In this document: positions 3,908 to 30,660 of the stretch, piece after piece
How the letters are laid out: the number at the start of each line of letters is the position of its first letter
How positions within the stretch are numbered: the first letter of the stretch is position 1
Made by a program: the position numbers and the translations under genes
Notes under the pieces: model-generated
The model's database searches: none
Told to the model about the DNA's origin: nothing
Seen by the model: only the letters and a program-made list of their open reading frames with translations
NCBI GenBank assembly: GCA_964565645.1
Contig: CAZMFQ010000011.1
Span: forward strand, 1,717-65,716
From: an uncultured Eubacteriales bacterium
GTDB lineage: Bacteria; Actinomycetota; Coriobacteriia; Anaerosomatales; JAHIQC01
Length of the DNA stretch: 64,000 bases
Direction: 5' to 3'

Positions 3908-3915
3908 CAACCGCC

Positions 3916-5098: not shown

Positions 5099-5109
5099 CT
5101 GTCGTGGGG

Positions 5110-5666: not shown

Positions 5667-5683
5667 TGGGCCATCGCTGGCTT

Positions 5684-5767: not shown

Positions 5768-5795
5768 AGGGCGTAGATCGACGGGGGGCATTCGG

Positions 5796-6179
5796 GTGAT
5801 GCGAGGCCACTTGTTTGGACTGGATTTGCGCCTACTACTCCTGCTTGGCCTCAGCTCCCTGGTACTGCTTGCATGTTCACCCGGCTCACCGCCACGGCCC
5901 CAAGAGCAGCCGTATCGTTTTGATTCTGTTCGCTGGAAGCAGTCAATGCCGCATTCGCGCGATCTGGCGCAGGAGGTCATCGACAGGAGTCTGGTCAGTT
6001 CCATGACGCCCGAGCAGGTCTTCGAGTTGCTTGGTCCACCTGACTCATCTGCGATACCGGCGGACCTAGCTCCGGGGGACGAGTACCGAATCGGATTCTC
6101 GGTGGAGGCCACTCACGGTGTCGGGGAACTCGACTTACGCTTCTTGGGCGGGCGAGTGGCAGAGGCCGAACTGCACTGA
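5796..6179 (+). CDS. Putative lipoprotein with SmpA/BamE-like motif (cassette)
   Basis: Lipobox LLAC; MTPEQVFELLGPPD motif. Confidence 0.7.
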   Translation: MMRGHLFGLDLRLLLLLGLSSLVLLACSPGSPPRPQEQPYRFDSVRWKQSMPHSRDLAQEVIDRSLVSSMTPEQVFELLGPPDSSAIPADLAPGDEYRIGFSVEATHGVGELDLRFLGGRVAEAELH

Positions 6180-6202
6180 ATGCTGAGCGGTTGACGGCGC
6201 CT

Positions 6203-6286
6203 ACCTAACTGGCGCTTCGAGCAGACGGCCAGGAGCGGTATTGTGATGGAGGCGCTGGGCCGCTGCTCAAGCGCAACACGTTAGGA
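6203..6286 (+). repeat. attC site 10 (family A)
   Basis: ACCTAAC...GTTAGGA. Confidence 0.93.
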
Positions 6287-6302
6287 CTACCAAGGGGAGC
6301 GC

Positions 6303-6698
6303 ATGACACGTGTGGCAGTAGCGAGTCTGATCGCAGGCGCTGCCTTCCTCGTCATCGTGCTTGATGCTGGCGCGGGTCTTGGGGTTGCAGAACACCTGAT
6401 GATTCTCGCGATCGTAGTGGTAACCGGAATCGGCCCGTTCGCGTTCGGTGCGGTTGTTCGGCTGCTGTGGAAGTCGGATGACGTTCCGCAGGCCCTTCCT
6501 TGGCTGTTCGCCGTTGCGCTCGGCCTAATCCGGTATGTTGCGCCTCAATTCGGCGGGCTGACAGTCTGGGCTTCAAAGCCCATCTCGGTACTGATGACCA
6601 TCGCGCTGGGCGGTGCGTTTGCTGAACTAGGAATCGCTAGCGCTACCGCGATGCTGCGGCGTCGCGTCTTGCGTGATTCGGCGTCGTCTGAGTCCTAA
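6303..6698 (+). CDS. Hypothetical membrane protein (cassette)
   Basis: 4 hydrophobic segments; RBS ggggag; stop in R''. Confidence 0.8.
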   Translation: MTRVAVASLIAGAAFLVIVLDAGAGLGVAEHLMILAIVVVTGIGPFAFGAVVRLLWKSDDVPQALPWLFAVALGLIRYVAPQFGGLTVWASKPISVLMTIALGGAFAELGIASATAMLRRRVLRDSASSES

Positions 6699-6776
6699 CT
6701 AGCGCTTCGAGCAGACGGCCAGAACCGCTAGACTCATGAGAGCGCTGAGCCGCTGCTCAAGCGCAACACGTTAGAC
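6693..6776 (+). repeat. attC site 11 (family A)
   Basis: TCCTAAC...GTTAGAC. Confidence 0.95.
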
Positions 6777-6791
6777 ACCTTTGGGGGACAA

Positions 6792-7442
6792 TTGCGGCGA
6801 CTCGGGGTAGTGGCGATCGTGTTCGTCGGTCTGACTGCGATCGCGCAGGCGATCACGACCCTGGCGGGCAATGCCTGGGCGTTTGTTGCCCTCACCGAAC
6901 CGGCCATCGAGAATGTCCTCACGGTCGTTGGGCTTGTGGCGAGTGTTGTCCTCTCACTTGCGTTCGGATTCGTCCTGCTAGCCAAGCGCCATCGGCTCGC
7001 TGACCGGCTTCTCGATGACACAGAGGTCGATTTCGCCATCGACGGAGTGACAATGCTCCGAGTCGCGGTGATCGTCTTTGGACTGATACTGCTTGTCGGC
7101 TCAGTTCCTCGGCTGGTCAGTTCTGTGAGTTCGTGGGCAACCCAAGTGGCTCTAGAGCGTTCCTATGACATGGAGCTCACCCAAGAAACCGGTGAGTACT
7201 GGTCCATGGTCGCAAGCGCGCTGATCGGCATCATCGAAGCAGTGGTCGGCGCCGTCTTCCTTGTGCGCTCGCAATGGCTGGCTGAGCGCCTGTGGTTCGG
7301 TGCGCGGCCCGTCGCTGTCGCTGCCTCGCCCTCGTCCAATTGCCCAAGTTGTGGAGCCGGGTTCGACCCCGACGACTACGTGGACAGGGCCAACGCACGC
7401 TGCGTCGAATGCCGTGAGCTGCTATTCCCAGAAAGTGTCTAA
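6792..7442 (+). CDS. Membrane protein with C-terminal Zn-ribbon (cassette)
   Basis: 4 TM segments, then CPSC...CVEC; stop in R''. Confidence 0.78.
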   Translation: MRRLGVVAIVFVGLTAIAQAITTLAGNAWAFVALTEPAIENVLTVVGLVASVVLSLAFGFVLLAKRHRLADRLLDDTEVDFAIDGVTMLRVAVIVFGLILLVGSVPRLVSSVSSWATQVALERSYDMELTQETGEYWSMVASALIGIIEAVVGAVFLVRSQWLAERLWFGARPVAVAASPSSNCPSCGAGFDPDDYVDRANARCVECRELLFPESV

Positions 7443-7520
7443 CTAGCGCTTCGAGCAGACGGCCAGGAGCGCTAGACTCATGAGAGCGCTGAGCCGCTGC
7501 TCAAGCGCAACACGTTCGAC
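7437..7520 (+). repeat. attC site 12 (family A)
   Basis: GTCTAAC...GTTCGAC. Confidence 0.95.
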
Positions 7521-7535
7521 AAACGATGAAGGGCG

Positions 7536-8081
7536 GTGAGCTTCGCAGTGAGTCTACCCCCGACTCCACAGCGCACCACGCCTGGATTCTCGTTCTCAAT
7601 CGTCGAGCGCTCTCTTCGCGACTGCATTGCCGATCGCAAGTTTGGCGCGCCGGAGAAGGTAGTCGCCGCGGAGTTCTTCGGCGGCGAATGCGCATTCTGC
7701 GGGGCAACGCCAATCCAGCGTTGGGACCATCTGGTGGCCGTGTCGCAGGGCGGGGACACCGTACTGGGAAACATGGTCCCCGCTTGCGCACAGTGCGACG
7801 ATTCCAAGCGACATCTCCCGTTCGATGACTGGGCCCTCGGGGACTCAGCGGGGTCACCGCGCTCTCGTGGCGTGTTGGATCTCGAAGCGAGACTGGATCG
7901 GATTCGTGAGTACGTCGCCGTGTACGGCTACGCGGCGCGACAGCCGGAGCAACGTCTCACTCCAGACGAGCTTGAGCAGTACGAGTTGATCCGGCTTGAG
8001 TTACAGCGCCTTCGCCGTGACGTCGATAAGTTCATCGCGATGCATCGTGAGGCGTCAGCTACGGAATCCGCGTCCGGCTGA
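7536..8081 (+). CDS. HNH endonuclease (cassette, copy 1)
   Basis: CAFCG...WDHLVAVSQGG...NMVPACAQC, followed by a coiled-coil tail. Confidence 0.88.
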   Translation: MSFAVSLPPTPQRTTPGFSFSIVERSLRDCIADRKFGAPEKVVAAEFFGGECAFCGATPIQRWDHLVAVSQGGDTVLGNMVPACAQCDDSKRHLPFDDWALGDSAGSPRSRGVLDLEARLDRIREYVAVYGYAARQPEQRLTPDELEQYELIRLELQRLRRDVDKFIAMHREASATESASG

Positions 8082-8086
8082 TCGTT

Positions 8087-8170
8087 GTCGAACTAGCGCT
8101 TCGAGCAGACGGCCAGAACCGCTAGACTCATGAAAGCGCTGAGCCGCTGCTCAAGCGCAACACGTTCGAC
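8087..8170 (+). repeat. attC site 13 (family A)
   Basis: GTCGAAC...GTTCGAC. Confidence 0.95.
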
Positions 8171-8209
8171 AGAACGCGATGGCTCCCTCGGCGAGAAGGC
8201 AGGCATGCT

Positions 8210-8650
8210 TTGGTGGCAGACGTGGGGCAGGATATCGAAGGCTCGGGTGCCGCGATAGTTGCCCGACCGTGGTATCCCCCGTTCCTCGCTGGCTTGCTCA
8301 CCGCATCGATTTCGCTCGCAGCCTCATGGGTGGCGATGGTCGTGGTAGGACTACATGGATTGGCCTCGTATGCCTTCATCGTCTGCGGCGCGCTCATCTC
8401 TTGGGGAATCGGAAGTGCGCTCTCGCGCATGCGAGGCCTTGACGATCTGGACCACTGGCCCCACTGGCCGCTCAGCCTTGGCACCGTGCTTCCCCTCTTC
8501 GGATTCATCGGCTTCACCTACATGAGGGTCGAGTGGTTCGGATGGCACGAATCTGTGCCGATGGAGTCGGTGTTCTATCCCGCACTGGCATTCTCAATCG
8601 CCATGAGACCCGCGGTGAAGTTCAGACGCGCGGGGGGCAATGTCAACTAG
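8210..8650 (+). CDS. Hypothetical membrane protein (cassette, copy 1)
   Basis: 4 hydrophobic segments; near-duplicate at 17864. Confidence 0.78.
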   Translation: MVADVGQDIEGSGAAIVARPWYPPFLAGLLTASISLAASWVAMVVVGLHGLASYAFIVCGALISWGIGSALSRMRGLDDLDHWPHWPLSLGTVLPLFGFIGFTYMRVEWFGWHESVPMESVFYPALAFSIAMRPAVKFRRAGGNVN

Positions 8651-8658
8651 GGCGTCTT

Positions 8659-8742
8659 GTCGAACTAGCGCTTCGAGCAGACGGCCAGGAGCGGTATTGT
8701 GATGGGAGCGCTGAGCCGCTGCTCAAGCGCAACACGTTCGAC
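8659..8742 (+). repeat. attC site 14 (family A)
   Basis: GTCGAAC...GTTCGAC. Confidence 0.95.
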
Positions 8743-8755
8743 CGAATGAGGGCTC

Positions 8756-9283
8756 ATGAAACGCCTGGCAGTAATGCTCGCCATCGCCTGCGTGCTTGCC
8801 GCAAGTGCACTCGCATCAGGATGCGGATCTACTCCTACTGCAGACGACACCGAGGCCGCCTATGGCCTCGACCCAAGCCAGTTCCAGCCCGAGAGCGAAC
8901 CGATCAAGGCCTCGATGCCCCGGCTGGAGTTCGCCGGGCTCGTCGATCTCACGGGCGATGAGGTATCCGCGGGGACCCAACTCGCCCCAGAGGACTACAC
9001 CGTATTCTCGACCGGGAGCGGTGTGACCTCGATCCAGTGGGTCCTGGTGATCGAACAGCAGTCCACTCAGCTCTGGATGACCCTCGATGATGAGAGCGCC
9101 TCAGAGGTCGAGTCATGGACGACGGCTCATGTCGGCGAGCCAATGGTGCTGATAGCGGATGGCGAGGTCGTTACGAGTGCAACGATTCTTGAGCCCATCA
9201 CTGGCGGCAGCCTAGCCGTGGACATGGAGGCGGGCCAAGACACTCGCGAACGACTTGAAGCCCTGGTTGTCCGGGGCGAGTAG
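8756..9283 (+). CDS. Lipoprotein with SecD/SecF P1-head-like domain (cassette)
   Basis: Lipobox ASGC; TLDDESA..VESWT..HVGEPMVLIADGEVVTSATILEPITGG resembles the SecD head. Confidence 0.72.
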   Translation: MKRLAVMLAIACVLAASALASGCGSTPTADDTEAAYGLDPSQFQPESEPIKASMPRLEFAGLVDLTGDEVSAGTQLAPEDYTVFSTGSGVTSIQWVLVIEQQSTQLWMTLDDESASEVESWTTAHVGEPMVLIADGEVVTSATILEPITGGSLAVDMEAGQDTRERLEALVVRGE

Positions 9284-9302
9284 TGCGTGCGAGATCACAT
9301 CG

Positions 9303-9386
9303 GTCGAACAAGCGCTTCGAGCAGACGGCCAGGAGCGCTAGACTCGTGGAAGCGCTGAGCCGCTGCTCAAGCGCAACACGTTAGCC
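9303..9386 (+). repeat. attC site 15 (family A)
   Basis: GTCGAAC...GTTAGCC. Confidence 0.93.
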
Positions 9387-9407
9387 GGAGTCGAAGGGAA
9401 TCCTCCG

Positions 9408-9821
9408 ATGACTAGCAAGCATAGAGTGGCCCTCTTCGCCACAGCGCTCGTGCTTGCAGCGCTGATGCTCACAGCCTGCACCTCATCGGGCGAGCCTGAA
9501 CCCGCAAACGCACCGGAGCCCTCGGGAATCGAAGGCGTGTCCCTGATGCTGGGTGGAGGCGGAGGTTTCGCCGACACTGAGACCGCCTCGCAAGGACGAC
9601 CCTACGCAGGCGATATCGAGATTCACGAGGGCGAGGTGTCAGGTGAACTTGTGACGACGTGCACGGCTGACGAGTCCGGAGTCTTCAAGGTCGATCTTCC
9701 ATCGGGCACCTACACACTTGTTCAAGTGAGCGCTGAGGGCATCGAAATCGGTGAGCCGGTGACCGTTGCGGTCCGCGCGGGCGAGTACGCGACTGTCACA
9801 CTGACGATTTCCGCTTTGTAG
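9408..9821 (+). CDS. Lipoprotein with carboxypeptidase-regulatory-like domain (cassette)
   Basis: Lipobox LTAC; TADESGVFKVDLPSGTYTL. Confidence 0.75.
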   Translation: MTSKHRVALFATALVLAALMLTACTSSGEPEPANAPEPSGIEGVSLMLGGGGGFADTETASQGRPYAGDIEIHEGEVSGELVTTCTADESGVFKVDLPSGTYTLVQVSAEGIEIGEPVTVAVRAGEYATVTLTISAL

Positions 9822-9830
9822 TTGCGACCC

Positions 9831-9936
9831 GGCTAACACGCGCTTCCACACTGACAAGATGAGGCCCGCGAGCTACGCTCGACAAGACGAGGCAATAACG
9901 GCCTCATCTTGCAGGTGAAGCGCAAACACGTTAGAA
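9831..9936 (+). repeat. attC site 16 (106 bp, unique loop)
   Basis: GGCTAAC-acgcgcttccacactgacaagatgaggcc...ggcctcatcttgcaggtgaagcgcaaacac-GTTAGAA. Confidence 0.9.
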
Positions 9937-9947
9937 CGAGGGGGAAC

Positions 9948-10484
9948 ATGTCCAAGGCTAGCGATGCCTTTCAGAGCTCGATCGGTGATGCCAAGGCGCT
10001 ACTCACCTACTTCGACGGCCTGCAGAAGTCATCGCCGGCCGACGGCGAGGTCTTGAAACGTGCCGGTCTCATCATGGCTCTCACAGCTTGGGAGACCTAC
10101 GTCGAGGATCGTGTTCTTGAGGAAGTCACCGCCCGCCTGAAGGTCATCGAGGGCAGCTACGCCGGTAAGTTCGTTCATGCACATCTTCAGGAGGAGCTTC
10201 GTCGGCTGCATAATCCGACGTCCGATAGGGTTCGGAAGCTCTACCACGAGTTCCTTGAGCATGACGTGACCGCGACCTGGGAATGGGCGAACTACAAGTC
10301 GGCTGACGCCAAGAAGACCCTCGACAAGCTGATCTCGACGCGAGGCGACGTCGTTCATCGCTCCAATCCGCCAGTGGTTGGCTGTCCACCAGCACCTCAC
10401 CCTGTGAAGCGGGATGACCTCGAAAAGGCGGTCCGCTTCCTCGAGGGACTTGTCGAAGCGACTGAACGCGGACTCGCCAGCTAG
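9948..10484 (+). CDS. HEPN domain protein, RiboL-PSP-HEPN-like (cassette)
   Basis: RAGLIMALTAWETYVED helix and Rx4H motif RGDVVH; ATG 9948 after ggggg RBS. Confidence 0.75.
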   Translation: MSKASDAFQSSIGDAKALLTYFDGLQKSSPADGEVLKRAGLIMALTAWETYVEDRVLEEVTARLKVIEGSYAGKFVHAHLQEELRRLHNPTSDRVRKLYHEFLEHDVTATWEWANYKSADAKKTLDKLISTRGDVVHRSNPPVVGCPPAPHPVKRDDLEKAVRFLEGLVEATERGLAS

Positions 10485-10495
10485 CTGCGGCCCCG

Positions 10496-10579
10496 TTCTA
10501 ACTAGCGCTTCGAGCAGACGGCCAAGAGCGGTATTGTGATGAAAGCGCTGGGCCGCTGCTCAAGCGCAACACGTTAGAT
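10496..10579 (+). repeat. attC site 17 (family A)
   Basis: TTCTAAC...GTTAGAT. Confidence 0.93.
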
Positions 10580-11378
10580 GGAACCTGGGGGTTCGGGGTT
10601 GCAGGGAGAACCGCTAACGACAGCCGCATGGAGCAGCATGGTAGCTCCAGTCATGAAGCTCGGAGCGGACGGCGAAGTCGCCGCGTTCCTCGGCACCGGG
10701 TTCGTGGCGGCGACTACTAGGCCCGTTCTCATCACCGCTAGACATGTGATTGCAGACAATCCGCTTGGCGCCGGCGAGAAATACTACGTGTACTTCCAGA
10801 CTGACGATGGCGTCGACATTAACCGCGCCGGAACTGAGGCGACCCTGTCACAGCGATACGATGTCGCCGCACTCCCACTCGGCGACGTCCCGGGCGTGCT
10901 CCCGCTCTTCCTCGATCCAAGCGAGATTCCAATGAACGAGCAGGTGACGTGCCGCGAGTACAGCGGTAACCACTTCCGCTTGGACCGTGAGACAGGCAAG
11001 CGGATTGCGAAACTCAGGCCGCGCAATCACGTGGGCAATGTGATGTGCTGGTACACAAGCGACTTTCCTGAGGCTCGGCCGACGCCGAGTTGCGAGCTAT
11101 CGTTCCCCGCGCTACAGGGTGCGAGCGGGGCGCCGGTTGTGCGCGATCGCGGACTTCACGTTGTCGCGATGTTGGTTGCCAACATTGAGCAACAGCTCGC
11201 ACCGGCTCAGGTTCTCAGAGTCGATGGTGTAGACGGGGCCCCTACAGAGGAGGTCAGCTACTTCCTGCCTTCGGGGAAGGGACTCGTGGCAAGCGCCATA
11301 ATCGAGTTCCTCGAAGAGGAATGCGGCTTGACCTGCACCACACCTCCACCGCTCTATCTTCCAGGGGAACTCATCTGA
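10578..11378 (+). CDS. Trypsin-like serine protease (cassette)
   Basis: GTGFV, ITARHV (His), YDVA (Asp), GASGAPV (Ser); no signal peptide; true start may be a few codons downstream. Confidence 0.82.
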   Translation: MEPGGSGLQGEPLTTAAWSSMVAPVMKLGADGEVAAFLGTGFVAATTRPVLITARHVIADNPLGAGEKYYVYFQTDDGVDINRAGTEATLSQRYDVAALPLGDVPGVLPLFLDPSEIPMNEQVTCREYSGNHFRLDRETGKRIAKLRPRNHVGNVMCWYTSDFPEARPTPSCELSFPALQGASGAPVVRDRGLHVVAMLVANIEQQLAPAQVLRVDGVDGAPTEEVSYFLPSGKGLVASAIIEFLEEECGLTCTTPPPLYLPGELI

Positions 11379-11397
11379 GCGTGTGCATGCTGGGTCC

Positions 11398-11481
11398 ATC
11401 TAACAAGCGCTTCGAGCAGAGCGCCAGGAGCGGTATTGTGATGAAAGCGCTGAGCGCCTGCTCAAGCGCAACACGTTAGGC
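11398..11481 (+). repeat. attC site 18 (family A variant)
   Basis: ATCTAAC...GTTAGGC. Confidence 0.93.
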
Positions 11482-11505
11482 ACAACTACTTCAAAGGGAG
11501 TCGTT

Positions 11506-12129
11506 TTGGGGCGCTTCGGTGACGATCCTCACGCCTTCTTCGGCCAGGTGTACTCAGATGTCGCCCCATGGGAAGTTGGCGGTCCGCAGCCGGACATGGC
11601 TCGTATGCTTGAGGACCATCCACCCGCGAATCCGGTGCTCGACCTCGGCTCTGCCACCGGCGATCTGGCCATCAGTCTGGCTCTGGCGGGTCATGAAGTC
11701 GTCGGGCTCGAGTTCGTACAGGCGGCTGTTGACCAAGCGCGCGAGAAGGCAGCCGTTCTGCCGCCGGAAGTGGGCGCGCGACTGCGCTTCGAGGTCGGGG
11801 ACGCTACTCGTCCGTCCGCTCTCGGGGTGGAATTCGGCACCGTGCTCGATTCGGGGTTCATCCACCTGCTCGACCCGGAGGAGACCGACCGCTTCGTCGC
11901 AGACCTTCGCGAAGCGATTGCGCCCGGCGGTCGCTACTATCTTCACGAGTTCGCGATCGAGTTCCCGATCGACAACGTACCGCGAGCGATCACGGAGGAT
12001 GAGATCCGCGCCCGGTTCAATGAGAACACGGGATGGCGTGTCGTTGAGGTGAGGTCAGCCGTGTTTCACAATCGCGTCGCGCAGCCCACGGCTGCCATAA
12101 TCGCGTGTATCGAGAGGCTCGCGGACTGA
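11506..12129 (+). CDS. Class I SAM-dependent methyltransferase, TPMT-like (cassette)
   Basis: APWEVGGPQP; VLDLGSATG motif I; LDSGFIH. Confidence 0.87.
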   Translation: MGRFGDDPHAFFGQVYSDVAPWEVGGPQPDMARMLEDHPPANPVLDLGSATGDLAISLALAGHEVVGLEFVQAAVDQAREKAAVLPPEVGARLRFEVGDATRPSALGVEFGTVLDSGFIHLLDPEETDRFVADLREAIAPGGRYYLHEFAIEFPIDNVPRAITEDEIRARFNENTGWRVVEVRSAVFHNRVAQPTAAIIACIERLAD

Positions 12130-12137
12130 GAGCGTGT

Positions 12138-12221
12138 ACCTAACTAGCGCTTCGAGCAGACGGCCAGGAGCGGTATTGTGATGAAGGCGCTGAGCCGCTG
12201 CTCAAGCGCAACACGTTAGAA
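12138..12221 (+). repeat. attC site 19 (family A)
   Basis: ACCTAAC...GTTAGAA. Confidence 0.95.
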
Positions 12222-12238
12222 GCACACAGGGGAGGCTC

Positions 12239-12667
12239 ATGGAGATCGGGCGCGTTCGAGAATCCGACCTGGATGCCATCGCCCGGCTCCACATGCACTT
12301 CTGGGGCGAGGCTTCGGACGTACCTGCTATGGCCGAGACGCTCACGCGACTGGAGGCCGATCGCGATCATGCACTTCTGGCGGCGCGCCTCGATGGCGTG
12401 TGCGTAGGCACCGCGACGGGGGTCGTCTGCCACGGATTGTATGGGGGCTCCGACTCCTATCTTGTGATCGAGGACGTCGTAGTCGACCCCGCGTGTCGTC
12501 GGCAGGGGATAGCGACCGCGCTCCTCGGCGAGTTGGAGCGTTTCGCTCGTGAGCATGACTGCAACCAGATGATTCTACTCACTGAGTCTGTCCGCGCGGA
12601 TGCGTCCGCGCTGTATGAGTCGGCCGGCTTCGAGTCCCGTTGGACGGGGTTCAAGAAGAAGCTCTAG
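12239..12667 (+). CDS. GNAT acetyltransferase (cassette)
   Basis: IEDVVVDPACRRQGIA; ALYESAGF. Confidence 0.88.
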   Translation: MEIGRVRESDLDAIARLHMHFWGEASDVPAMAETLTRLEADRDHALLAARLDGVCVGTATGVVCHGLYGGSDSYLVIEDVVVDPACRRQGIATALLGELERFAREHDCNQMILLTESVRADASALYESAGFESRWTGFKKKL

Positions 12668-12673
12668 CGTGGC

Positions 12674-12779
12674 TTCTAACAGGCGTTTCGACCCGATGAA
12701 CCTTGGCCGTGTGAGGTATCGTGGGTCGTGACAGCGCGCGAGGCCTGCGGTTCACGGGTCAAACGCAGAAACGTTCGAC
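12674..12779 (+). repeat. attC site 20 (106 bp, family B)
   Basis: TTCTAAC-aggcgtttcgacccgatgaaccttggcc...gttcacgggtcaaacgcagaaac-GTTCGAC. Confidence 0.9.
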
Positions 12780-12794
12780 AAACGATGAAGGGCG

Positions 12795-13340
12795 GTGAGC
12801 TTCGCAGTGAGTCTACCCCCGACTCCACAGCGCACCACGCCTGGATTCTCGTTCTCAATCGTCGAGCGCTCTCTTCGCGACTGCATTGCCGATCGCAAGT
12901 TTGGCGCGCCGGAGAAGGTAGTCGCCGCGGAGTTCTTCGGCGGCGAATGCGCATTCTGCGGGGCAACGCCAATCCAGCGTTGGGACCATCTGGTGGCCGT
13001 GTCGCAGGGCGGGGACACCGTACTGGGAAACATGGTCCCCGCTTGCGCACAGTGCGACGATTCCAAGCGACATCTCCCGTTCGATGACTGGGCCCTCGGG
13101 GACTCAGCGGGGTCACCGCGCTCTCGTGGCGTGTTGGATCTCGAAGCGAGACTGGATCGGATTCGTGAGTACGTCGCCGTGTACGGCTACGCGGCGCGAC
13201 AGCCGGAGCAACGTCTCACTCCAGACGAGCTTGAGCAGTACGAGTTGATCCGGCTTGAGTTACAGCGCCTTCGCCGTGACGTCGATAAGTTCATCGCGAT
13301 GCATCGTGAGGCGTCAGCTACGGAATCCGCGTCCGGCTGA
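12795..13340 (+). CDS. HNH endonuclease (cassette, copy 2)
   Basis: Translation identical to 7536..8081. Confidence 0.88.
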   Translation: MSFAVSLPPTPQRTTPGFSFSIVERSLRDCIADRKFGAPEKVVAAEFFGGECAFCGATPIQRWDHLVAVSQGGDTVLGNMVPACAQCDDSKRHLPFDDWALGDSAGSPRSRGVLDLEARLDRIREYVAVYGYAARQPEQRLTPDELEQYELIRLELQRLRRDVDKFIAMHREASATESASG

Positions 13341-13345
13341 TCGTT

Positions 13346-13429
13346 GTCGAACTAGCGCTTCGAGCAGACGGCCAGAACCGCTAGACTCATGAAAGCGCTG
13401 AGCCGCTGCTCAAGCGCAACACGTTCGAC
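13346..13429 (+). repeat. attC site 21 (family A, identical to site 13)
   Basis: GTCGAAC...GTTCGAC. Confidence 0.95.
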
Positions 13430-13478
13430 GGAGGCTACTCGTTCAGCGGGTCCGCAGGTCATCGCAGAGGGAGGGTTG

Positions 13479-14063
13479 ATGGCCGCACAGGAGGCAAATC
13501 GGTTCTCCCTCGCAGATGAGCGTCAGACCGTGACGTTCGTGCTGCGCGGTTGGGAGTTCCCTGAGCGACCTCAAGAGGGTACCGGCGGGTTCGTCGTATT
13601 CGGAATCGAGGCCTCCGGTGAGGCGTCGTGGACGGTCGCTGAGTTCACCGGAGCGTACTCCGACGACCTTCTCCACATGTGGCGGATGCTTCGCGCGTGG
13701 GCGGAGGTACCTATCACCACTGACGGAGCAATCGGATCCATGGAGCCGGGCCTCGTTGTCGAGGCGCGCCCAGCTACCGGAGGCGCTGTGCAAGTCGACG
13801 TGCAGGTCGATGGGAATCGTGCGTCCGTGACCGTGAACTCCGACGACCTCGGCCAGATGGCCGCTTGGCTCAAGGCTGAATTCTCTCGCCTCATCCCAGA
13901 GGAGCGATTCGTCCCAGCTCCCGCGCCCTCGCGGTTCCTCGGCATCGTGGTCGCGCCAATCGTCATGTGGTCGCTCGCCGTATTCATTGCCGTCGGACGG
14001 GGTTTCATTTGGGTCTTCGGTGGCCGCCCGCGTCGAACTAGCGCTTCGAGCAGACGGCCATGA
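13479..14063 (+). CDS. Hypothetical protein with C-terminal TM helix (cassette); stop inside attC22
   Basis: RBS ggaggg before ATG 13479; TGA at 14061-14063. Confidence 0.72.
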   Translation: MAAQEANRFSLADERQTVTFVLRGWEFPERPQEGTGGFVVFGIEASGEASWTVAEFTGAYSDDLLHMWRMLRAWAEVPITTDGAIGSMEPGLVVEARPATGGAVQVDVQVDGNRASVTVNSDDLGQMAAWLKAEFSRLIPEERFVPAPAPSRFLGIVVAPIVMWSLAVFIAVGRGFIWVFGGRPRRTSASSRRP

Positions 14064-14157: not shown

Positions 14158-15318
14158 ATGAGTGAACGAGCAACATCCGTCACACCGCATCTGCTCACAT
14201 GGGCTCGTGAGCGGGCAGGTCTCTCGCTGTCCGATGTTGCAGAGTACATCTCAAAAGACCCGGCGGATGTCGCTGCCTGGGAGGCAGGCGAGGCTTGGCC
14301 AACCTTCAAACAGCTCGAAAGACTCGCAGACGGCCTCTTCCACCGTCCGGTCGCGCTCTTCTTCTTCCCTGAGCCGCCTGAAGAGCCACCAACCCAGGAG
14401 GAGTTCCGCACTCTTCCAGACTTCGATATTCAGGACCTGCAGGCTGATACGCGGTATGCGGTTCGGCTTGGGCGATCCTATCAAGAGTCACTGCGTGAGC
14501 TGACTGGAAGCGCGAACCCGTCGTCACGCAAGCTCTGGCGCGATATGAGGCTATCTGCTTCATCGGACATAGTGGCCGCAGCGATCGAGCTCCGTAAGTA
14601 CCTCGGCGTCTCGTTGGATCAACAAAGAGCATGGGGCAGCTCGGAGAACGCGATGGCCGGCTGGAGAGCCCGCATCGAAGATGCAGGTGTGTACGTCTTC
14701 AAGAGGTCATTCAAACAGCGTGAAATCTCTGGATTCTGTCTGACCGATGACGAGTTTCCGATCATCATGGTCAACAACAGCAATGCCTTCACCCGCCAGG
14801 TGTTCACGCTATTCCACGAGGTAGCACACATACTCTTCGGCGTTAACAGCATAACCACGGTGGATGGTCGTTTCGTTGACCACATGTCCGGCGCAAGCCA
14901 ATCCGTAGAGGTTGCATGCAACAGGTTCGCAGCTGAGTTCCTAGTGCCTGAAGCCGCCTTTCCGTGGAACGCCGTTAATCCGAGTGATCCACTCACCTCG
15001 ATCGCCCCAATCGCGGCACGATTCAACGTTAGCCGTGAAGTCATTCTTCGACGAATCGCTGACAAGGGGCTCGTGGATGCCGATACGTATCGCAAGTGCG
15101 TTAGCGAGTGGGCCGCCGCATCGTTGAACCGTCCGCCGGGTGGTGACGGAGGCAATTACTACAACACGCAGGCTGCCTACCTTGGGGATGCTTACCTACG
15201 GCTCGCCTTCTCGCGCTACAGGGCCGGGGTCATCAGCGTTGCAGATCTCTCGGAGCACCTCGGCGTCAAGGCGCGGAACATTGCCAAGCTTGAGGACAAG
15301 GTGGCGAGCAGAATCTGA
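14158..15318 (+). CDS. XRE-family HTH fused to ImmA/IrrE Zn-metallopeptidase
   Basis: LTWARERAGLSLSDVA...WEAG HTH; HExxH motif (FHEVAH); EVACNRFAAEFLVP. Confidence 0.9.
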   Translation: MSERATSVTPHLLTWARERAGLSLSDVAEYISKDPADVAAWEAGEAWPTFKQLERLADGLFHRPVALFFFPEPPEEPPTQEEFRTLPDFDIQDLQADTRYAVRLGRSYQESLRELTGSANPSSRKLWRDMRLSASSDIVAAAIELRKYLGVSLDQQRAWGSSENAMAGWRARIEDAGVYVFKRSFKQREISGFCLTDDEFPIIMVNNSNAFTRQVFTLFHEVAHILFGVNSITTVDGRFVDHMSGASQSVEVACNRFAAEFLVPEAAFPWNAVNPSDPLTSIAPIAARFNVSREVILRRIADKGLVDADTYRKCVSEWAAASLNRPPGGDGGNYYNTQAAYLGDAYLRLAFSRYRAGVISVADLSEHLGVKARNIAKLEDKVASRI

Positions 15319-17707: not shown

Positions 17708-17740
17708 ACCACCGCCGGCGCGTCGTGCAATCGCGTCCTT

Positions 17741-17824
17741 GTCGAACTAGCGCTTCGAGCAGACGGCCAGGAGCGGTATTGTGATGAAGGCGCTGGGCCG
17801 CTGCTCAAGCGCAACACGTTCGAC
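17741..17824 (+). repeat. attC site 26 (family A)
   Basis: GTCGAAC...GTTCGAC. Confidence 0.95.
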
Positions 17825-17863
17825 AGAACGCGATGGCTCGGTCGGCGAGAAGGCAGGCATGCT

Positions 17864-18304
17864 TTGGTGGCAGACGTGGGGCAGGATATTGAAGGCTCGG
17901 GTGCCGCGATAGTCGCCCGACCGTGGTATCCCCCGTTCCTCGCTGGCTTGCTCACCGCATCGATTTCGCTCGCAGCCTCATGGGTGGCGATGGTCGTGGT
18001 AGGACTACATGGATTGGCCTCGTATGCCTTCATCGTCTGCGGCGCGCTCATCTCTTGGGGAATCGGAAGTGCGCTCTCGCGCATGCGAGGCCTTGACGAT
18101 CTGGACCACTGGCCCCACTGGCCGCTCAGCCTTGGCACCGTGCTTCCCCTCTTCGGATTCATCGGCTTCACCTACATGAGGGTCGAGTGGTTCGGATGGC
18201 ACGAATCTGTGTCGATGGAGTCGGTGTTCTACCCCGCACTGGCGTTCTCCATCGCCATGAGGCCCGCGGTGAAGCTCAGGCGCGCAGGGGGCAATGCCAA
18301 CTAG
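17864..18304 (+). CDS. Hypothetical membrane protein (cassette, copy 2)
   Basis: 3 aa differences from 8210..8650. Confidence 0.78.
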   Translation: MVADVGQDIEGSGAAIVARPWYPPFLAGLLTASISLAASWVAMVVVGLHGLASYAFIVCGALISWGIGSALSRMRGLDDLDHWPHWPLSLGTVLPLFGFIGFTYMRVEWFGWHESVSMESVFYPALAFSIAMRPAVKLRRAGGNAN

Positions 18305-21234: not shown

Positions 21235-21339
21235 GGCTAGAAGGCGTTTCGACGCGATTCACCTTGGCCGTGTGCGGTATCGTGAGTCGTGACAGCGCGT
21301 GGGGCCTGCGGTTCACGGGTCAACGCACAGACGTTGGCG
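21235..21339 (+). repeat. attC site 29 (105 bp, family B, mutated R'')
   Basis: GGCTAGA...GTTGGCG. Confidence 0.82.
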
Positions 21340-21345
21340 GGACGC

Positions 21346-21750
21346 CTACACGCGTTTCGCGCTGTGCGAGCGGACCCAGTCCGCGAGCTCCGGCTCATCG
21401 AGTGTCGCGGAGGCCAAGGCGACCATCGTGGTCACCACGTCGGACTCCTCGGCAGTGAACTTAAGACCGTTCAGTCCCAGGAACACTGCCATCGCCACAA
21501 AGGCCAGGCGCTTGTTGCCGTCGATGTAGGGATGGTTGCTCGACAGCCCGAACCCGTATGCCGCCGCAAGTCCGGCCAGGTCCGTGGACGGTTCATGTGC
21601 CAGCTTCTGGCGTGGGCGCGCCAGTGCGGATTCGAGTCGGCCCTCGTCTCGCAGCCCCGGCAGCCCTCCGTGGGTGAGCAGCATATCGGTGTGCACCGCG
21701 TCGATGACCACCCGCGTGACCCAGCGCGGTTCTTGGTTGCTGTGAGCCAT
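21346..21750 (-). CDS. doc: Fic/Doc family toxin (copy 2)
   Basis: HPYIDGNKR; diverged paralog of 3221..3625. Confidence 0.92.
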   Translation of the reverse strand: MAHSNQEPRWVTRVVIDAVHTDMLLTHGGLPGLRDEGRLESALARPRQKLAHEPSTDLAGLAAAYGFGLSSNHPYIDGNKRLAFVAMAVFLGLNGLKFTAEESDVVTTMVALASATLDEPELADWVRSHSAKRV

Positions 21751-21753
21751 GGG

Positions 21754-21981
21754 TTACTTGGCAAGCTCGTGCAATGCGTTGCGGTACGTGCGGGCCACGC
21801 TCGACGCGATCGCGAGCGCTTCTTCGGTGTCAGGATCGTAGGGGGTGAGCAGGATCCCACGATCCGTCTCAATGGCGATCACCGTGTCGCCGGCCTCGAG
21901 TTTGAGCCTGTCCGCCATGTCCTTGGGCAGCGTGGCGGCAATCGAGCCGCCAGCGCGCCGCAGTTTCACTTCCTGAGTCAT
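21754..21981 (-). CDS. AbrB/MazE family antitoxin (copy 2)
   Basis: MTQEVKLRRAGGSIAATLPKD; GGAGG RBS. Confidence 0.9.
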   Translation of the reverse strand: MTQEVKLRRAGGSIAATLPKDMADRLKLEAGDTVIAIETDRGILLTPYDPDTEEALAIASSVARTYRNALHELAK

Positions 21982-22033: not shown

Positions 22034-22041
22034 CAACCGCC

Positions 22042-22125
22042 CGCTAACTCGCGCTTCGAGCAGACGGCCAGGAGCGGCGTCTTGATGGAGGCGCTGAACG
22101 CCTGCTCAAGCGCAACATGTTGGGC
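22042..22125 (+). repeat. attC site 30 (family A, diverged)
   Basis: CGCTAAC...GTTGGGC. Confidence 0.9.
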
Positions 22126-22190
22126 ACACCCGGCTATGTGGCCACCCTCCGCAACTAGCGCCCCGCTAGGCACTGGCCCAAGGCATCCTG

Positions 22191-23171
22191 CTAGCCGGCG
22201 ACGGGCGATGCTGCTTCGCTCTGCGCCTCGCACCACCTGGCGTGCATCGAATCGTAGTGCCCGTACATGAACGGGCAGCGCTTGATGCACAACGTGCACC
22301 CGTCCATCGTGCTGAAAGGCACCGCGCACTTTGCGTGGTCGATGAAGACCGGGCCGCCTTCGGGGGCCTCTCGCGGTTCCAGATAGATAGCGTCAGCGGG
22401 GCAGTGCTTCACGCAGGCGTTGCACGTGTCGCAGTAGTCGCGGACCCAGGAGTGGGGATTCTCCTCGGCGAACCGCAGGTTCTCGATGTCGGTGTAGACG
22501 GCGGCCAGTCGAACACGGGGACCGTAGGCCTTGGTGATGATCATGCCGTTCTTGCCGACCTCGCCAAGGCCGGCATCACGCGCAATGGGAACGAAGCTAC
22601 CTTCGCTTCCCAGCGCCGGACCCGCATGAGCGTTGAAGCCGCGCTCGCGCAGGAAGTCAGACAGTTGGTTCACGACGTGACCCAGCTTGTAGTACGTGCG
22701 AAAGATCTCTAGGAAGGTCGGCACGCTGGGGGCCTGCTTGATCTTCTCGAAATCCATCTCCATCGTGAACACGATGGCGTTGGGATACAGGATGCTCAGG
22801 TCCTTGAAGATGTAGTCGGGGTTCACCCGCGTGTACCCGATGTCCGAGACACCCAGCGAGCGAGCGTAGTCCTCTAACTCAACCAGCGTCTCCGGCGCCA
22901 CCTCCACGTTTCCGAGCCGCGGGTTCTCACGGATGCTCACGTTGGCCCTGCGCAACTCGCGAATGTTGATGGCCATCAGTCTCCAGATGCGGCCGATTCG
23001 TCTGACGCGGCCCCATAGGCTGCCGTAGTCCAGAATCACCAGTGGGACGAGACGGGGGTATCGCGCATTGGGTCCACTGTGAAGAGGATGGTCGCCTTCC
23101 CGCAGGTAGTGGTCCTTGTTGAGGAACCAGGGCGGGCGGCGGAACCTCTCGGAGAGCAGCGGTCGCTTCAC
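22191..23171 (-). CDS. Reductive dehalogenase/QueG-like 2x[4Fe-4S] protein (probably cobalamin-binding), no TAT signal
   Basis: ARDAGLGEVGKNGMIIT..GPRVRLAAVYTD; CxxCxxCxxxCP and Cx9CxxCxxxCP; GTG 23171 after AGGAGG. Confidence 0.8.
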   Translation of the reverse strand: MKRPLLSERFRRPPWFLNKDHYLREGDHPLHSGPNARYPRLVPLVILDYGSLWGRVRRIGRIWRLMAINIRELRRANVSIRENPRLGNVEVAPETLVELEDYARSLGVSDIGYTRVNPDYIFKDLSILYPNAIVFTMEMDFEKIKQAPSVPTFLEIFRTYYKLGHVVNQLSDFLRERGFNAHAGPALGSEGSFVPIARDAGLGEVGKNGMIITKAYGPRVRLAAVYTDIENLRFAEENPHSWVRDYCDTCNACVKHCPADAIYLEPREAPEGGPVFIDHAKCAVPFSTMDGCTLCIKRCPFMYGHYDSMHARWCEAQSEAASPVAG

Positions 23172-23181
23172 GGTCGACCTC

Positions 23182-23757
23182 CTATTGAGTGGGGCGCCAG
23201 CGGGCGAGTAGCGCGTCCACGTGAAGCGGGATGAAGTCGCGCGAGACGATGCGGCCGGCGATGAACCTCTCGTAGAAGAACGGTCCGGCAATCAGCGACA
23301 GGGCCGTTTCGAAGGGCACGTCCATCGCGATGGTTGCCCGAGCCACCTCTCGCTGCAGCAGACGCATCATTTCGTCCTCGGCGTGCGCGAGTACCCCGTC
23401 GAGGAAGGAGCGCATCTCCGGTTCCCAGTCCGCACGTGCGATGAGCGATGACATCGCGAGGGCACTCGGCGATTCCAGTCGGGAGCAGAGCGTTTCGAGC
23501 ATGAACACGAGGCCATCGCGGAGTGAGAGATCCTCGGGTACTCCAATCGACAGCGACAGCGCCTCGAGGGCCTCAAGCATGAGACTCTGGCGATCCGGCC
23601 AGTGTCGGTAGACAGTAGCGCGCCCGATACCTGCGCGCTCTGCCACACGCTGGTGGGTGATCGCCTCAGGACCATCCTCTTGAAGCAATTCAAGCGCTGC
23701 CGCGGTGACGAGTTCTCTTGTACGCTCGATTCTGGGGTCGGTGACAGTGAGGCCCAT
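23182..23757 (-). CDS. TetR/AcrR family regulator
   Basis: RIERTRELVTAAALELLQEDGPEAITHQRVAERAGIGRATVYRHW. Confidence 0.9.
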   Translation of the reverse strand: MGLTVTDPRIERTRELVTAAALELLQEDGPEAITHQRVAERAGIGRATVYRHWPDRQSLMLEALEALSLSIGVPEDLSLRDGLVFMLETLCSRLESPSALAMSSLIARADWEPEMRSFLDGVLAHAEDEMMRLLQREVARATIAMDVPFETALSLIAGPFFYERFIAGRIVSRDFIPLHVDALLARWRPTQ

Positions 23758-23792
23758 GGTGTACTCCAGAGAAAGGAAGGGAAGTCCGCGAA

Positions 23793-23837
23793 TTATGATA
23801 CAGGTTGTCTCGTTATGATACAAGACGTCTCATTATG
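23793..23837 (-). promoter_or_regulatory. Promoter TTGTAT-N17-TATCAT (minus strand) within tandem 20-bp repeats; likely TetR operators
   Basis: ttatgatacaggttgtctcg / ttatgatacaagacgtctca / ttatg. Confidence 0.65.
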
Positions 23838-23862
23838 CGTGATTGGCAAGCTGAGTGCGGGT

Positions 23863-23963
23863 GTCCAACAAACGCATAGACACCGACAAGCCGGTCGGGT
23901 GAGGTAGACTCAGTGGCAAGCGCGCAGGAGCCGGTTTGCGGGTCATGCGCAAACACGTAAGGC
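23863..23963 (+). repeat. attC site 31 (101 bp, diverged)
   Basis: GTCCAAC-aaacgcatagacaccgacaagccgg...ccggtttgcgggtcatgcgcaaacac-GTAAGGC. Confidence 0.78.
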
Positions 23964-23984
23964 AGAGCGCTGGGGGGCGGAAAG

Positions 23985-24164
23985 ATGCCAATACTGGGGG
24001 ATCCGCAAGGCACGCAGGCGCGGGCGATTGATACCGAGCGCAAGTACCCCGCGGCCCGGGCCCAGGAGCCACCACCCTCCTACCGTCGCAAGCAGCTACT
24101 CGTGCTCGCGGCACTGATCGGGGTCCCGGCGCTGGTATACGCGTTCACTCGGTTGCTCGGTTGA
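23985..24164 (+). CDS. 59-aa small protein with C-terminal TM helix (cassette; not in ORF track)
   Basis: MPILGDPQG...RRKQLLVLAALIGVPALVYAFTRLLG*; fills the cassette between attC31 and attC32. Confidence 0.6.
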   Translation: MPILGDPQGTQARAIDTERKYPAARAQEPPPSYRRKQLLVLAALIGVPALVYAFTRLLG

Positions 24165-24170
24165 GTGCCT

Positions 24171-24254
24171 GCCCAACTAGCGCTTAGAGCAGACGGCCAG
24201 GAGCGGTATTGTGATGAGAGTGCTGGGCGTCTGCTCAAGCACAACACCATAGGC
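24171..24254 (+). repeat. attC site 32 (family A, core mutated)
   Basis: GCCCAAC...CATAGGC. Confidence 0.85.
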
Positions 24255-24282
24255 ATCCACGTCTGCGAGTCGGGTGATCCAT

Positions 24283-24555
24283 ATGTGCCGCAACATTCAC
24301 GTTCTGTTCAACTTCGAACCTCCCGCGACCGACGAGGAGATTCGGGCCGCCGCCGCGCAGTACGTGCGCAAGATCAGCGGCTATGCCAAGCCGTCGGCGG
24401 CGAACGAGGCAGCTTTCAACCGTGGCATCGATGAGATCGCACAGGCATCCGCTCGCATGCTCGACTCTCTGGTCACAGCCGCCCCGCCCCGCGATCGTGA
24501 GCGCGAGGCAGAGAAGGCTCGTGAGCGGGCTCGTCATCGATTCGGTGATGCCTAG
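24283..24555 (+). CDS. DUF2277 family protein (cassette)
   Basis: MCRNIHVLFNFEPPATDEEIRAAAAQYVRKISG. Confidence 0.88.
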   Translation: MCRNIHVLFNFEPPATDEEIRAAAAQYVRKISGYAKPSAANEAAFNRGIDEIAQASARMLDSLVTAAPPRDREREAEKARERARHRFGDA

Positions 24556-24641
24556 CGGGCGTTTCGACCCGATGAGCCTTGGCCGTGTCAGGTATCGTGA
24601 GTGGCAGCATGGGCCGCTGCTCACGCCGAAACACGTTAGGC
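24550..24641 (+). repeat. attC site 33 (family B, internally shortened, R'' mutated)
   Basis: GCCTAGC-gggcgtttcgacccgatgagccttggcc...GTTAGGC. Confidence 0.78.
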
Positions 24642-24741
24642 GCAGGAGGGAGGGCTAGATGCGCGGGCTCGTGAAGTCGCTCCTCGTGATCTGGTTGGTG
24701 ATGGGCCGCGGATAGAAGGCAACACGTCGGACACGATACGG

Positions 24742-29784: not shown

Positions 29785-30660
29785 GTGACCCGAGCCCTTG
29801 CCATCTGCTACTTCTCCGGGACCGGGAACACCGAGTACGTGGTGGAGCTAGCGCGCGACGCGTTCGCCCGGGCCGGGGTAGCTGTCGACACCTTCCGCAT
29901 CGAGGACCTCCGCCGAGGAGCAGACTCCTCGTTCGACCCCACCGCATATGACATGCTCGGGATCGCGCATCCCGTTCTGGGCTTCGACTGCCCCCGACTC
30001 GTCCGCGAGTTCGTGCAGGATCTGCCGCAGGCGATGGCTCAGCCGGTCTTCATCCTCAAGACCGCCGGTGACTATCACGCGGTGAACCATAGTTCCTCGC
30101 ATGTGATCAAGAGGGTGCTCATCGCAAAGGGCTACGACCCGTTCTACGATGAGATCGTCGCCATGCCGTCGAACTGGCTCGTGGCATACGACGACAGACT
30201 CAACAGGGAGTTGGTGCGGGTGGCTCCCGAGCGGGTGGAAGTCGCGGTCCGGCACATCCTGGCCAAGGAGCGCCGAGCCCTCTCGAATCACTGGCCCGCC
30301 CGCCTCCTCCTCGGCGCGGCGAGTGTGCTCGAGGACCGCTACGGCGCCAGAGCCTTCGGGCGGTCGTTGCAGGCAGGCGCCTCGTGCACTCGATGCGGAC
30401 TGTGCGCGCGCGAGTGCCCGAGCGGCAACATACGGCTGTCTGGGGGCACCGTGTCCTTCGGCGATGAGTGCGTTTGGTGCATGCGGTGCGTCTACAACTG
30501 TCCGGTGAGCGCGATCGGCAGCAAACGTATGGGCATCTTCATCCTGAAGAGGGGCTACAGCCTGGCGAACACGAAGGATCTCACGGCGGAGCCGATCGAC
30601 TTCGAGGCTGACGGATTGCCCTTCTGGCACCGGTACTTCCGGCGCTACTTCGTCGAGTGA
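29785..30660 (+). CDS. EFR1-family flavodoxin-ferredoxin fusion
   Basis: YFSGTGNTEYV; CTRCGLCARECP; CVWCMRCVYNCP. Confidence 0.88.
   Translation: MTRALAICYFSGTGNTEYVVELARDAFARAGVAVDTFRIEDLRRGADSSFDPTAYDMLGIAHPVLGFDCPRLVREFVQDLPQAMAQPVFILKTAGDYHAVNHSSSHVIKRVLIAKGYDPFYDEIVAMPSNWLVAYDDRLNRELVRVAPERVEVAVRHILAKERRALSNHWPARLLLGAASVLEDRYGARAFGRSLQAGASCTRCGLCARECPSGNIRLSGGTVSFGDECVWCMRCVYNCPVSAIGSKRMGIFILKRGYSLANTKDLTAEPIDFEADGLPFWHRYFRRYFVE

Follow-up and report, generated by a model that had tools for sequence, protein, structure and literature searches.

Is a reductive-dehalogenase-like enzyme carried together with its own regulator as one integron cassette, and what chemistry would such an enzyme perform? 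The question arises at positions 22120-23957 of a 64,000-nt stretch of DNA (contig CAZMFQ010000011.1 of assembly GCA_964565645.1), here called the window, from an uncultured member of the Actinomycetota (Coriobacteriia, Anaerosomatales). The segment carries two genes, tetR for a TetR-family regulator and rdhL for a small protein related to the reductive dehalogenase (RDH) RdhA and to the epoxyqueuosine reductase QueG. An original prediction, made from the sequence and its translations, had described it as a self-regulated module lying between two integron attachment sites, attC30 and attC31. Our analysis indicated that the segment is a genuine integron cassette with a self-contained inverted operon that would be repressed by TetR and in which RdhL would act as a cytoplasmic corrinoid/Fe-S reductive dehalogenase, and for this reading as a whole we estimate a probability of about 0.6. 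The packaging as a cassette is established by an attC of its own, by ends that pair with each other, and by its recurrence in at least two further arrays, again flanked by attC sites. The regulation, the use of B12 and the substrate class are what we infer about the module inside it.

The tetR-rdhL cassette and its recurrence in other arrays

An integron cassette array occupies the left 24.6 kb of the window. Direct-repeat analysis of the window revealed more than 25 copies of attC-like repeats of 89-130 nt, all in a single orientation. For the attC scan a covariance model, R1, was built from 28 other attC sites of the window, with attC31 left out of the training, and it was run with the filters off. 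The scan gave 33 attC sites on the + strand between 110 and 24647, and no site in the window beyond about 24.7 kb scored above about 11 bits. Nearly all cassette open reading frames (ORFs) of the array are on the + strand with an attC at the 3' end, which fixes the polarity of the array and places the integrase side beyond the left window edge. The tetR-rdhL unit was found between attC30 and attC31, and the predicted numbering of these sites was reproduced by the R1 scan; the coordinates predicted for the 1.84-kb unit agreed exactly with the core-site bases read from the sequence (Table 1).

The boundaries could be set to the base. attC30 is the attC of the preceding toxin-antitoxin (Doc/MazE) cassette. 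With the G of its R' box GTTGGGC at 22119, the first base of the tetR-rdhL cassette is 22120 (TTGGGCACACCC), and the last is the G at 23957. The length of 1838 bp exceeds most other attC-to-attC intervals of the array, many of them 0.5-0.9 kb. attC31 aligns with the second attC sequence type of the window. By the integron core-site consensus that we used (R'' RYYYAAC, R' GTTRRRY), its R'' box GTCCAAC (23863-23869) is regular, and its L'' box has three extra, extrahelical bases relative to L' (CGCAT[A]GAC[A]CCG[A]CAA versus CGCATGACCCGCAA). The resemblance of the two cassette ends that had been predicted turned out to be a pairing, in which the start GTTGGGCACACCC is complementary to GGGTGTCCAAC, the extended R'' at 23860-23869. 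When attC31 was circularised in silico, that is, joined to the first bases of its own cassette, the bottom strand folded into a canonical hairpin with a paired R box, an unpaired spacer and an L box with three single-base bulges (dG -24.7 kcal/mol, z -2.71, 1 of 200 shuffles equally good), and the reconstituted R' of the cassette (G+TTGGGC) fits GTTRRRY. Both genes are on the - strand and thus inverted relative to the array, as had been predicted.

The same pair was also found with attC sites elsewhere, in arrays with different neighbours. Each of the closest RdhL homologues (76-91% identity) is directly preceded by a TetR_C_11 gene of the same orientation, as seen at loci L001, L002 and L059 and on contig P0006. 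At L002, from Anaerosoma tenue (Actinomycetota, Coriobacteriia), tetR-rdhL is flanked by attC sites scoring 63.9 and 70.3 bits; the array there comprises at least 21 attC sites (154-13491) and adjoins an integron integrase gene at 14273-15244 on the - strand (TIGR02249 474.8 bits, cut-off 265). At L059, on another metagenome contig, the pair is likewise flanked by attC sites. The cassette ends are conserved across the window, L002 and L059 (GTTGGGCACCC ... GGTGTGCCCAAC), with GTTGG[G/A]CACCC beside the operator and GGTGTGCCCAAC beyond rdhL, and the two genes are inverted relative to the attC polarity in every copy. Because the ends are the same and the neighbouring cassettes differ, tetR-rdhL moves as a unit. 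The ratio of nonsynonymous to synonymous substitution rates (dN/dS) was 0.11-0.14 in rdhL and 0.11-0.13 in tetR, and the dS values of the pair match, which means that the two genes co-evolve under purifying selection. The A. tenue locus is itself a complete integron, in which the integrase gene is co-directional with the cassettes (the "inverted integrase" layout).

At L001, which holds an 88%-identical copy, the attC is decayed, with 15.9 bits, a z of -0.3 and CACC in R'', and the homology extends no further than the stop codon of rdhL, after which there is no attC. In the L001 interval 8961-11546 an Rce1-like gene overlaps the 3' end of rdhL on the opposite strand and is followed by a DUF4386 gene, a second TetR gene and a weak attC. 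This 3' arrangement looks like a cassette fusion or the loss of an attC. Near RdhL homologues outside the Anaerosoma-like clade, no attC sites were detected in L003-L058, which is weak evidence given that the model is lineage-specific. Among sequencing runs, RNA runs included, the cassette was detected in only two metagenomes, each with about 7-8% of its words.

RdhL and its protein family

The start of rdhL is supported by full-length alignment to 49 homologues of 314-340 aa. The features predicted for a protein of about 326 aa in the RdhA/QueG family were all recovered: the segment DAGLGEVGKNG...GPRVRL at aa 199-222, and two Fe-S motifs, CDTCNACVKHCP at 247 and C282 with CTLCIKRCP at 292. 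The eight Fe-S cysteines (C247/250/253/257 and C282/292/295/299) are invariant in the family alignment. Pfam returned only generic 4Fe-4S (Fer4) families for RdhL. Against the more specific NCBI models, RdhL scored 86.3 bits with RDH TIGR02486, below the curated cut-off of 160.35, and 46.2 bits with QueG TIGR00276 (cut-off 200), where the match was limited to aa 195-263. All 50 family members tested matched both models, each of them with a higher score for RDH than for QueG, and the best E-values were 1.1e-27 for RDH and 1.7e-14 for QueG. The sequence search of the PDB gave the same order, with PceA 8Q4H at 8e-27, PceA 4UQU at 2e-14, NpRdhA at 2e-11 and QueG at 9e-9.

The AlphaFold2 (AF2) model of RdhL had a pLDDT of 89.8 and a pTM of 0.89, and its best Foldseek matches were PceA (about 1e-15, TMq about 0.6) and NpRdhA (about 1e-11), followed by QueG (4e-7) and MMACHC (3e-3). 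PceA, NpRdhA, QueG and MMACHC are B12 binders with a nitroreductase-like core, and RdhL is predicted from this model to have the same corrinoid-binding core fold. In the HMMER alignment Tyr246 and Arg305 of PceA correspond to Y160 and R221 of RdhL, both of which are invariant in the family (in FRTY and GPRVRL). We take Y246/R305 in PceA and Y426/K488 in NpRdhA to be the catalytic tyrosine and its basic partner. Taken together, the scores, the fold and the motifs place RdhL as a cytoplasmic member of the RdhA/QueG superfamily that is nearer to RdhA and belongs to neither curated family. It is neither QueG nor a canonical respiratory RdhA, and it represents a separate uncharacterised family of about 300-360 aa.

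A scan of RdhL for a twin-arginine translocation (TAT) motif or a hydrophobic segment found neither, in line with the lack of a TAT signal predicted before, and no rdhB-like gene was found among the cassette ORFs. The stretch RFRRPPWFL at aa 9-17 was considered as a TAT signal and rejected, as it does not fit RRxFL, is not followed by a hydrophobic region and is packed into the AF2 fold. The family consensus around this stretch is KRPPxFL; as a speculation, the stretch could be the vestige of an ancestral TAT signal.

A scan of 1.84 billion cluster representatives returned 163 clusters at E <= 1e-30, mostly of 300-360 aa, and 56 loci were found in species-representative genomes, mostly of Anaerolineae with some Clostridia and archaea. 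Cultured hosts are included, namely Anaerosoma tenue, Anaeromonas frigoriresistens and Tepidibacter mesophilus. Two to five RdhL paralogs stand in tandem in Anaerolineae, and these genes fall into at least three subfamilies in a neighbour-joining tree. In the same tree the cassette clade is sister to Anaerolineae subfamily A. Proteins of 447 aa that pass the RDH cut-off (172 bits) branch outside the RdhL family. A divergent TetR gene is located directly upstream in 26 loci, and in Clostridia a MarR gene takes that place.

In seven Anaerolineae loci an iodothyronine-deiodinase-like gene is located among the RdhL paralogs on the same strand (Table 1). It has the motif FGS[YF]T-U-PP[FY] with an in-frame TGA at the selenocysteine position U, and it matches PF00837 at 9e-15. 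In ORF lists this gene appears as two pieces of 72 aa and 139 aa. Deiodinases are reductive dehalogenases of aromatic iodides. The deiodinase context, the expansion of paralogs under small-molecule regulators and the Tyr/Arg pair together make reductive dehalogenation the most likely chemistry of RdhL.

Regulation, proposed mechanism and alternative explanations

The regulator was identified as predicted, with PF00440 at 46.3 bits (cut-off 24) and PF16859 at 44.7 bits (cut-off 32). rdhL begins 10 bp downstream of tetR and has the ribosome-binding site AGGAGG 6 nt upstream of its start. The tetR stop codon TAG (23182-23184) overlaps this AGGAGG, so both genes form one operon. Upstream of tetR, Tandem Repeats Finder (TRF) reported a repeat at 23792-23837 with a period of 20, 2.3 copies and 80% matches. 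Each repeat unit holds one 15-bp palindrome, and the two palindromes are of the form GAKAC-N5-GTATC with centres 20 bp apart. The units in the window read GAGAC-N5-GTATC, and at L002 and L059 both palindromes are perfect GATAC-N5-GTATC. They are the most conserved non-coding elements across four loci with diverged flanking DNA, and their conservation and position suggest that they could serve as TetR operators. The best promoter candidate, TTGTAT-17-TATCAT, agrees with the consensus at 8 of 12 positions and has one hexamer in each repeat, with the candidate -10 TATCAT (23795-23800) overlapping palindrome 2 and the candidate -35 TTGTAT (23818-23823) overlapping palindrome 1. A scan of 22100-24000 for strict sigma-70 consensus promoters and for terminators gave no sites, so the promoter is suggested by AT-richness and operator position. 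The predicted promoter within tandem 20-bp repeats was therefore borne out for the repeats and not for the promoter. Between the rdhL stop codon and the cassette boundary there is a short palindrome, CTAGCGCCCCGCTAG, at 22155-22169; it could be a transcript-end hairpin, has no T-run and was not called by the terminator scan.

We propose the following mechanism. TetR would bind both tandem palindromes, and since these overlap the only AT-rich, promoter-like stretch upstream of tetR, it would repress tetR-rdhL until released by a small-molecule ligand. Expression would be independent of the integron promoter, which is far off and points in the opposite direction. Electrons would pass from ferredoxin or flavodoxin through the two clusters of RdhL to the corrinoid, which would take a halide, or a leaving group of a similar kind, off a small, probably aromatic or phenolic substrate by reduction. 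As in PceA, the proton would come from the tyrosine, here Tyr160, with Arg221 as the partner of this residue.

Several observations weigh against a TetR-repressed, cassette-borne dehalogenase. The chemistry and cofactor of the RdhL family are predictions from sequence and modelled fold, RdhL scores under the RDH cut-off, and Asn272 of PceA is not conserved, the aligned residue of RdhL being G188. The association with the deiodinase-like gene is confined to Anaerolineae (7 of about 33 loci) and is absent from the cassette clade. On the regulatory side, the strict promoter scan was empty, and 2fq4, the best PDB match of TetR among solved structures, has no known ligand. On the integron side, no intI was found in the window, from which the array runs off at the left edge, and the junction of attC31 within the array is defective, as described below. 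In one alternative RdhL is a corrinoid/Fe-S reductase of the same superfamily in a regulated detoxification or salvage module, with a natural substrate that is not an organohalide, for example an epoxide, an N-oxide, a nitro compound or another activated group on a secondary metabolite or modified nucleoside base. In its favour, the superfamily already has a non-dehalogenating member in QueG, RdhL scores under the RDH cut-off and does not conserve Asn272 of PceA, its clade is separate from the proteins of 447 aa that exceed this cut-off, and a nitroreductase gene is the neighbour of rdhL on contig L060. We nevertheless regard this alternative as unlikely, though worth keeping in view, because the invariant Tyr/Arg pair is of the RdhA type and not of the QueG type, every sequence and fold measure is nearer to RdhA, rdhL recurs beside deiodinase-like selenoprotein genes, and the expansion of paralogs under TetR or MarR resembles rdhA gene clusters. 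That RdhL is a divergent QueG is far less credible still. Many homologues carry names such as "epoxyqueuosine reductase" in Joint Genome Institute (JGI) annotation, and the TIGR00276 match does cover the AGLG/Fe-S segment. This identity was rejected on the weak and partial match, on the better scores of RDH, PceA and NpRdhA, and on missing domains: Pfam detected no DUF1730 and no HEAT-like C-terminal domain, and RdhL ends about 25 aa past its last Fe-S motif, which leaves no room for the C-terminal domain of QueG. A mobile cassette under TetR and multi-paralog clusters would also be unexpected for a housekeeping gene of tRNA modification. Grouping with true QueG, which had been named as the outcome that would overturn the predicted dehalogenase-like identity, was thus not what the comparison gave.

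It is rather probable that the window copy has lost its function as a mobile cassette, having degenerated at the distal end of a sedentary array and become joined to its neighbour when the recombination core was lost. Within the array the R' box of attC31 reads GTAAGGC (23957-23963) in place of GTTRRRY, with GTT changed to GTA, and the minimum-energy fold of the in-array bottom strand has no canonical hairpin. The last six bases of an in-array R' come from the next cassette. The attC following attC31 has the R'' box GCCCAAC, so the next cassette would be expected to start with TTGGGC; it starts with TAAGGC, which means two substitutions, and these account for the failed in-array fold, given that the circularised form folds. 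The mutated junction suggests that the window copy is probably fixed at the decaying distal array end, with its own attC31 intact and the junction to the next cassette probably dead. The prediction of functional attC flanks therefore stood as far as the R1 scores and the circularised fold go, and it is qualified by the in-array attC31, with which this copy can probably no longer be excised alone. Neighbouring distal sites are degraded too (at 20950 the core is GCT instead of GTT, at 24166 it is CAT, and the site at 21230 has only 14 bits), and the last array site, 24545-24647, scores 23 bits, as would be expected if a sedentary array were decaying at its far end; the decayed attC and truncated homology of L001 point the same way. 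On the other side, the genes of the window copy are intact and under purifying selection, and attC30 and the R'' and L boxes of attC31 are intact. Decay would touch the mobility of the window copy and not the identity of the unit, and it is compatible with a cassette-borne, TetR-repressed dehalogenase. An anti-phage defence or toxin-like role of the pair was the remaining alternative. The adjacent cassette is a Doc/MazE pair, and sedentary integrons are described as rich in defence and toxin-antitoxin cassettes in a preprint (bioRxiv 10.1101/2024.07.02.601686). We consider this role highly improbable, since neither protein has a PADLOC match and the homologues are ordinary chromosomal genes in metabolic-looking clusters of Anaerolineae and Clostridia.

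Table 1 Features of the tetR-rdhL cassette in the window, and positions of the deiodinase-like genes at RdhL loci of Anaerolineae
Feature	Position	Strand	Basis or remark
Whole tetR-rdhL cassette, cassette 31 of the 33-attC array	22120..23957	+ (array polarity)	Bounded by attC30 and attC31
attC30	22037..22131	+	R1 77.5 bits, E 5.6e-23; long bottom-strand hairpin
attC31, the cassette's own attC	23863..23963	+	R1 model match 23858-23969, 38.2 bits, E 3.9e-10
rdhL, 326-aa predicted-cytoplasmic RdhA-like protein	22191..23171	-	GTG start; TIGR02486, PDB, AF2, family alignment
rdhL ribosome-binding site AGGAGG	23178..23183	-	Read from sequence
tetR, 191-aa TetR-family regulator (TetR_N + TetR_C_11)	23182..23757	-	Pfam
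Putative operator palindrome 2, tetR-proximal	23797..23811	-	GAGACAACCTGTATC on the - strand
Putative operator palindrome 1, tetR-distal	23817..23831	-	GAGACGTCTTGTATC on the - strand
Deiodinase-like genes	L005 5357-6004; L009 ~5501, L021 ~7205, L024 ~7185, L025 ~7465, L033 ~7172, L035 ~7172		

The cassettes on both sides were also characterised. The preceding one (21346-21981, - strand) contains an inverted Doc gene (Fic/DOC, 134 aa) and a MazE/AbrB-type antitoxin gene (75 aa) and is another promoter-bearing two-gene cassette. The inverted Doc/MazE cassette is present twice in the array at 90% identity (3206-3505 and 21331-21630). Other cassettes are duplicated as well: 7512-7811 and 12771-13070 are 100% identical (181-aa ORF, 7536-8081 and 12795-13340), and 8082-8381 and 17736-18035 are 95% identical. 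The next cassette, 23958-24260, has a sole ORF of 59 aa (23985-24164, + strand), which ends in a hydrophobic tail at the C-terminus and has no match in Pfam or NCBIfam. A further metagenome contig, L061, has an identical RdhL with the same 59-aa neighbour, and the joint travel of the two cassettes fits their fusion by the dead junction. Outside the array, the window encodes a 291-aa protein (29785-30660, + strand) with a flavodoxin-like N-terminus (MTRALAICYFSGTGNTEYV) and 4Fe-4S motifs, which is a possible low-potential electron carrier. There are also two very large surface proteins with CW_binding_2 repeats (48861-53627 and 60395-63097), both of which additionally have FG-GAP, cadherin-like, Big_9 or beta-helix domains. 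L001 encodes a protein of this kind too, which suggests that the host is Gram-positive and related to the L001 organism.

Significance and comparison with known systems

Our literature search turned up no report of an integron cassette with an RdhA-type gene. Among complete genomes, IntegronFinder 2.0 detected no complete integron in Actinobacteria (PMC9024848), so the A. tenue integron and the 33-attC array are notable in themselves, and the latter is a record of a large array of this type from Actinomycetota. Should RdhL prove to be an active dehalogenase, its soluble RdhA-type scaffold would be the smallest one, with no TAT signal, anchor or extra domains and with a matching TetR sensor, which would make it attractive for structural work, biosensing and bioremediation engineering. 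The cassette would also show that integrons can carry regulated redox-enzyme modules in addition to toxin-antitoxin pairs and single genes without promoters. A possible implication of the link to deiodinase-like selenoproteins is an unstudied anaerobic halogen-cycling pathway in Anaerolineae. A wider proposal, which we put forward as a doubtful one, is that RdhL is a third, minimal (about 320 aa) branch of the cobalamin/Fe-S "class III B12" enzymes. Such a branch would act in the cytoplasm of anaerobes on halogenated, possibly iodinated or brominated, phenolics; it would work beside selenocysteine-containing deiodinase-like enzymes in Anaerolineae and could be captured and moved by integrons of Gram-positive Actinomycetota as a ready-regulated detoxification module.

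Among known systems, the respiratory RdhA proteins (PceA of Sulfurospirillum multivorans, 4UQU; PceA of Desulfitobacterium, 8Q4H) are the best sequence and fold matches of RdhL. They share with it AGLG..G, the motifs CxxCxxCxxxCP and C...CxxCxxxCP, and the equivalents of Tyr246/Arg305. Their length is about 450-550 aa, compared with 326 aa for RdhL, which has no TAT signal, no RdhB partner and no detected PF13486 N-terminal region. RdhL differs further in scoring below the TIGR02486 cut-off, in not conserving Asn272, in its predicted cytoplasmic location and in its link to TetR. The catabolic, cytosolic RdhA proteins (NpRdhA, 4RAS/6ZY1; BhbA) are like RdhL in being soluble, TAT-less and non-respiratory and in having a tyrosine with a basic residue; however, NpRdhA and BhbA, at about 700 aa, contain a second B12-like domain in vestigial form and in some cases a reductase domain, whereas RdhL is about 320 aa long and makes up a clade of its own.

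A "simplified cytosolic" RdhA-like type with a mean length of 395 aa, itself uncharacterised, has been described from cold-seep metagenomes in Chloroflexota and Desulfobacterota (PMC12219181). Compared by description only, it is likewise short and present in Chloroflexota, with a mean of 395 aa against about 320 aa for RdhL, and RdhL may overlap with this type or lie next to it. QueG (5D08, 5D6S) has the same cofactor-binding core and Fe-S domain as RdhL, is also cytoplasmic and is of similar length, but RdhL has no C-terminal tRNA-binding domain, scores weakly with QueG, has the RdhA-type Arg in GPRVRL and occurs in a mobile, regulated context.

With respect to gene organisation, the RdhL clusters are similar to the rdhA clusters of Dehalococcoidia with MarR or two-component regulators, in that paralogs stand side by side with an adjacent regulator of a small-molecule type. 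They differ in belonging to another RdhA subfamily, in having no rdhB, and in hosts that are not known organohalide respirers. As a cassette, tetR-rdhL resembles the toxin-antitoxin cassettes of sedentary chromosomal integrons, which also have two co-transcribed genes with their own regulatory region, inverted and followed by one attC. The difference lies in the cargo, which is a repressor with a redox enzyme in tetR-rdhL and a toxin-antitoxin pair in those promoter-bearing two-gene cassettes.

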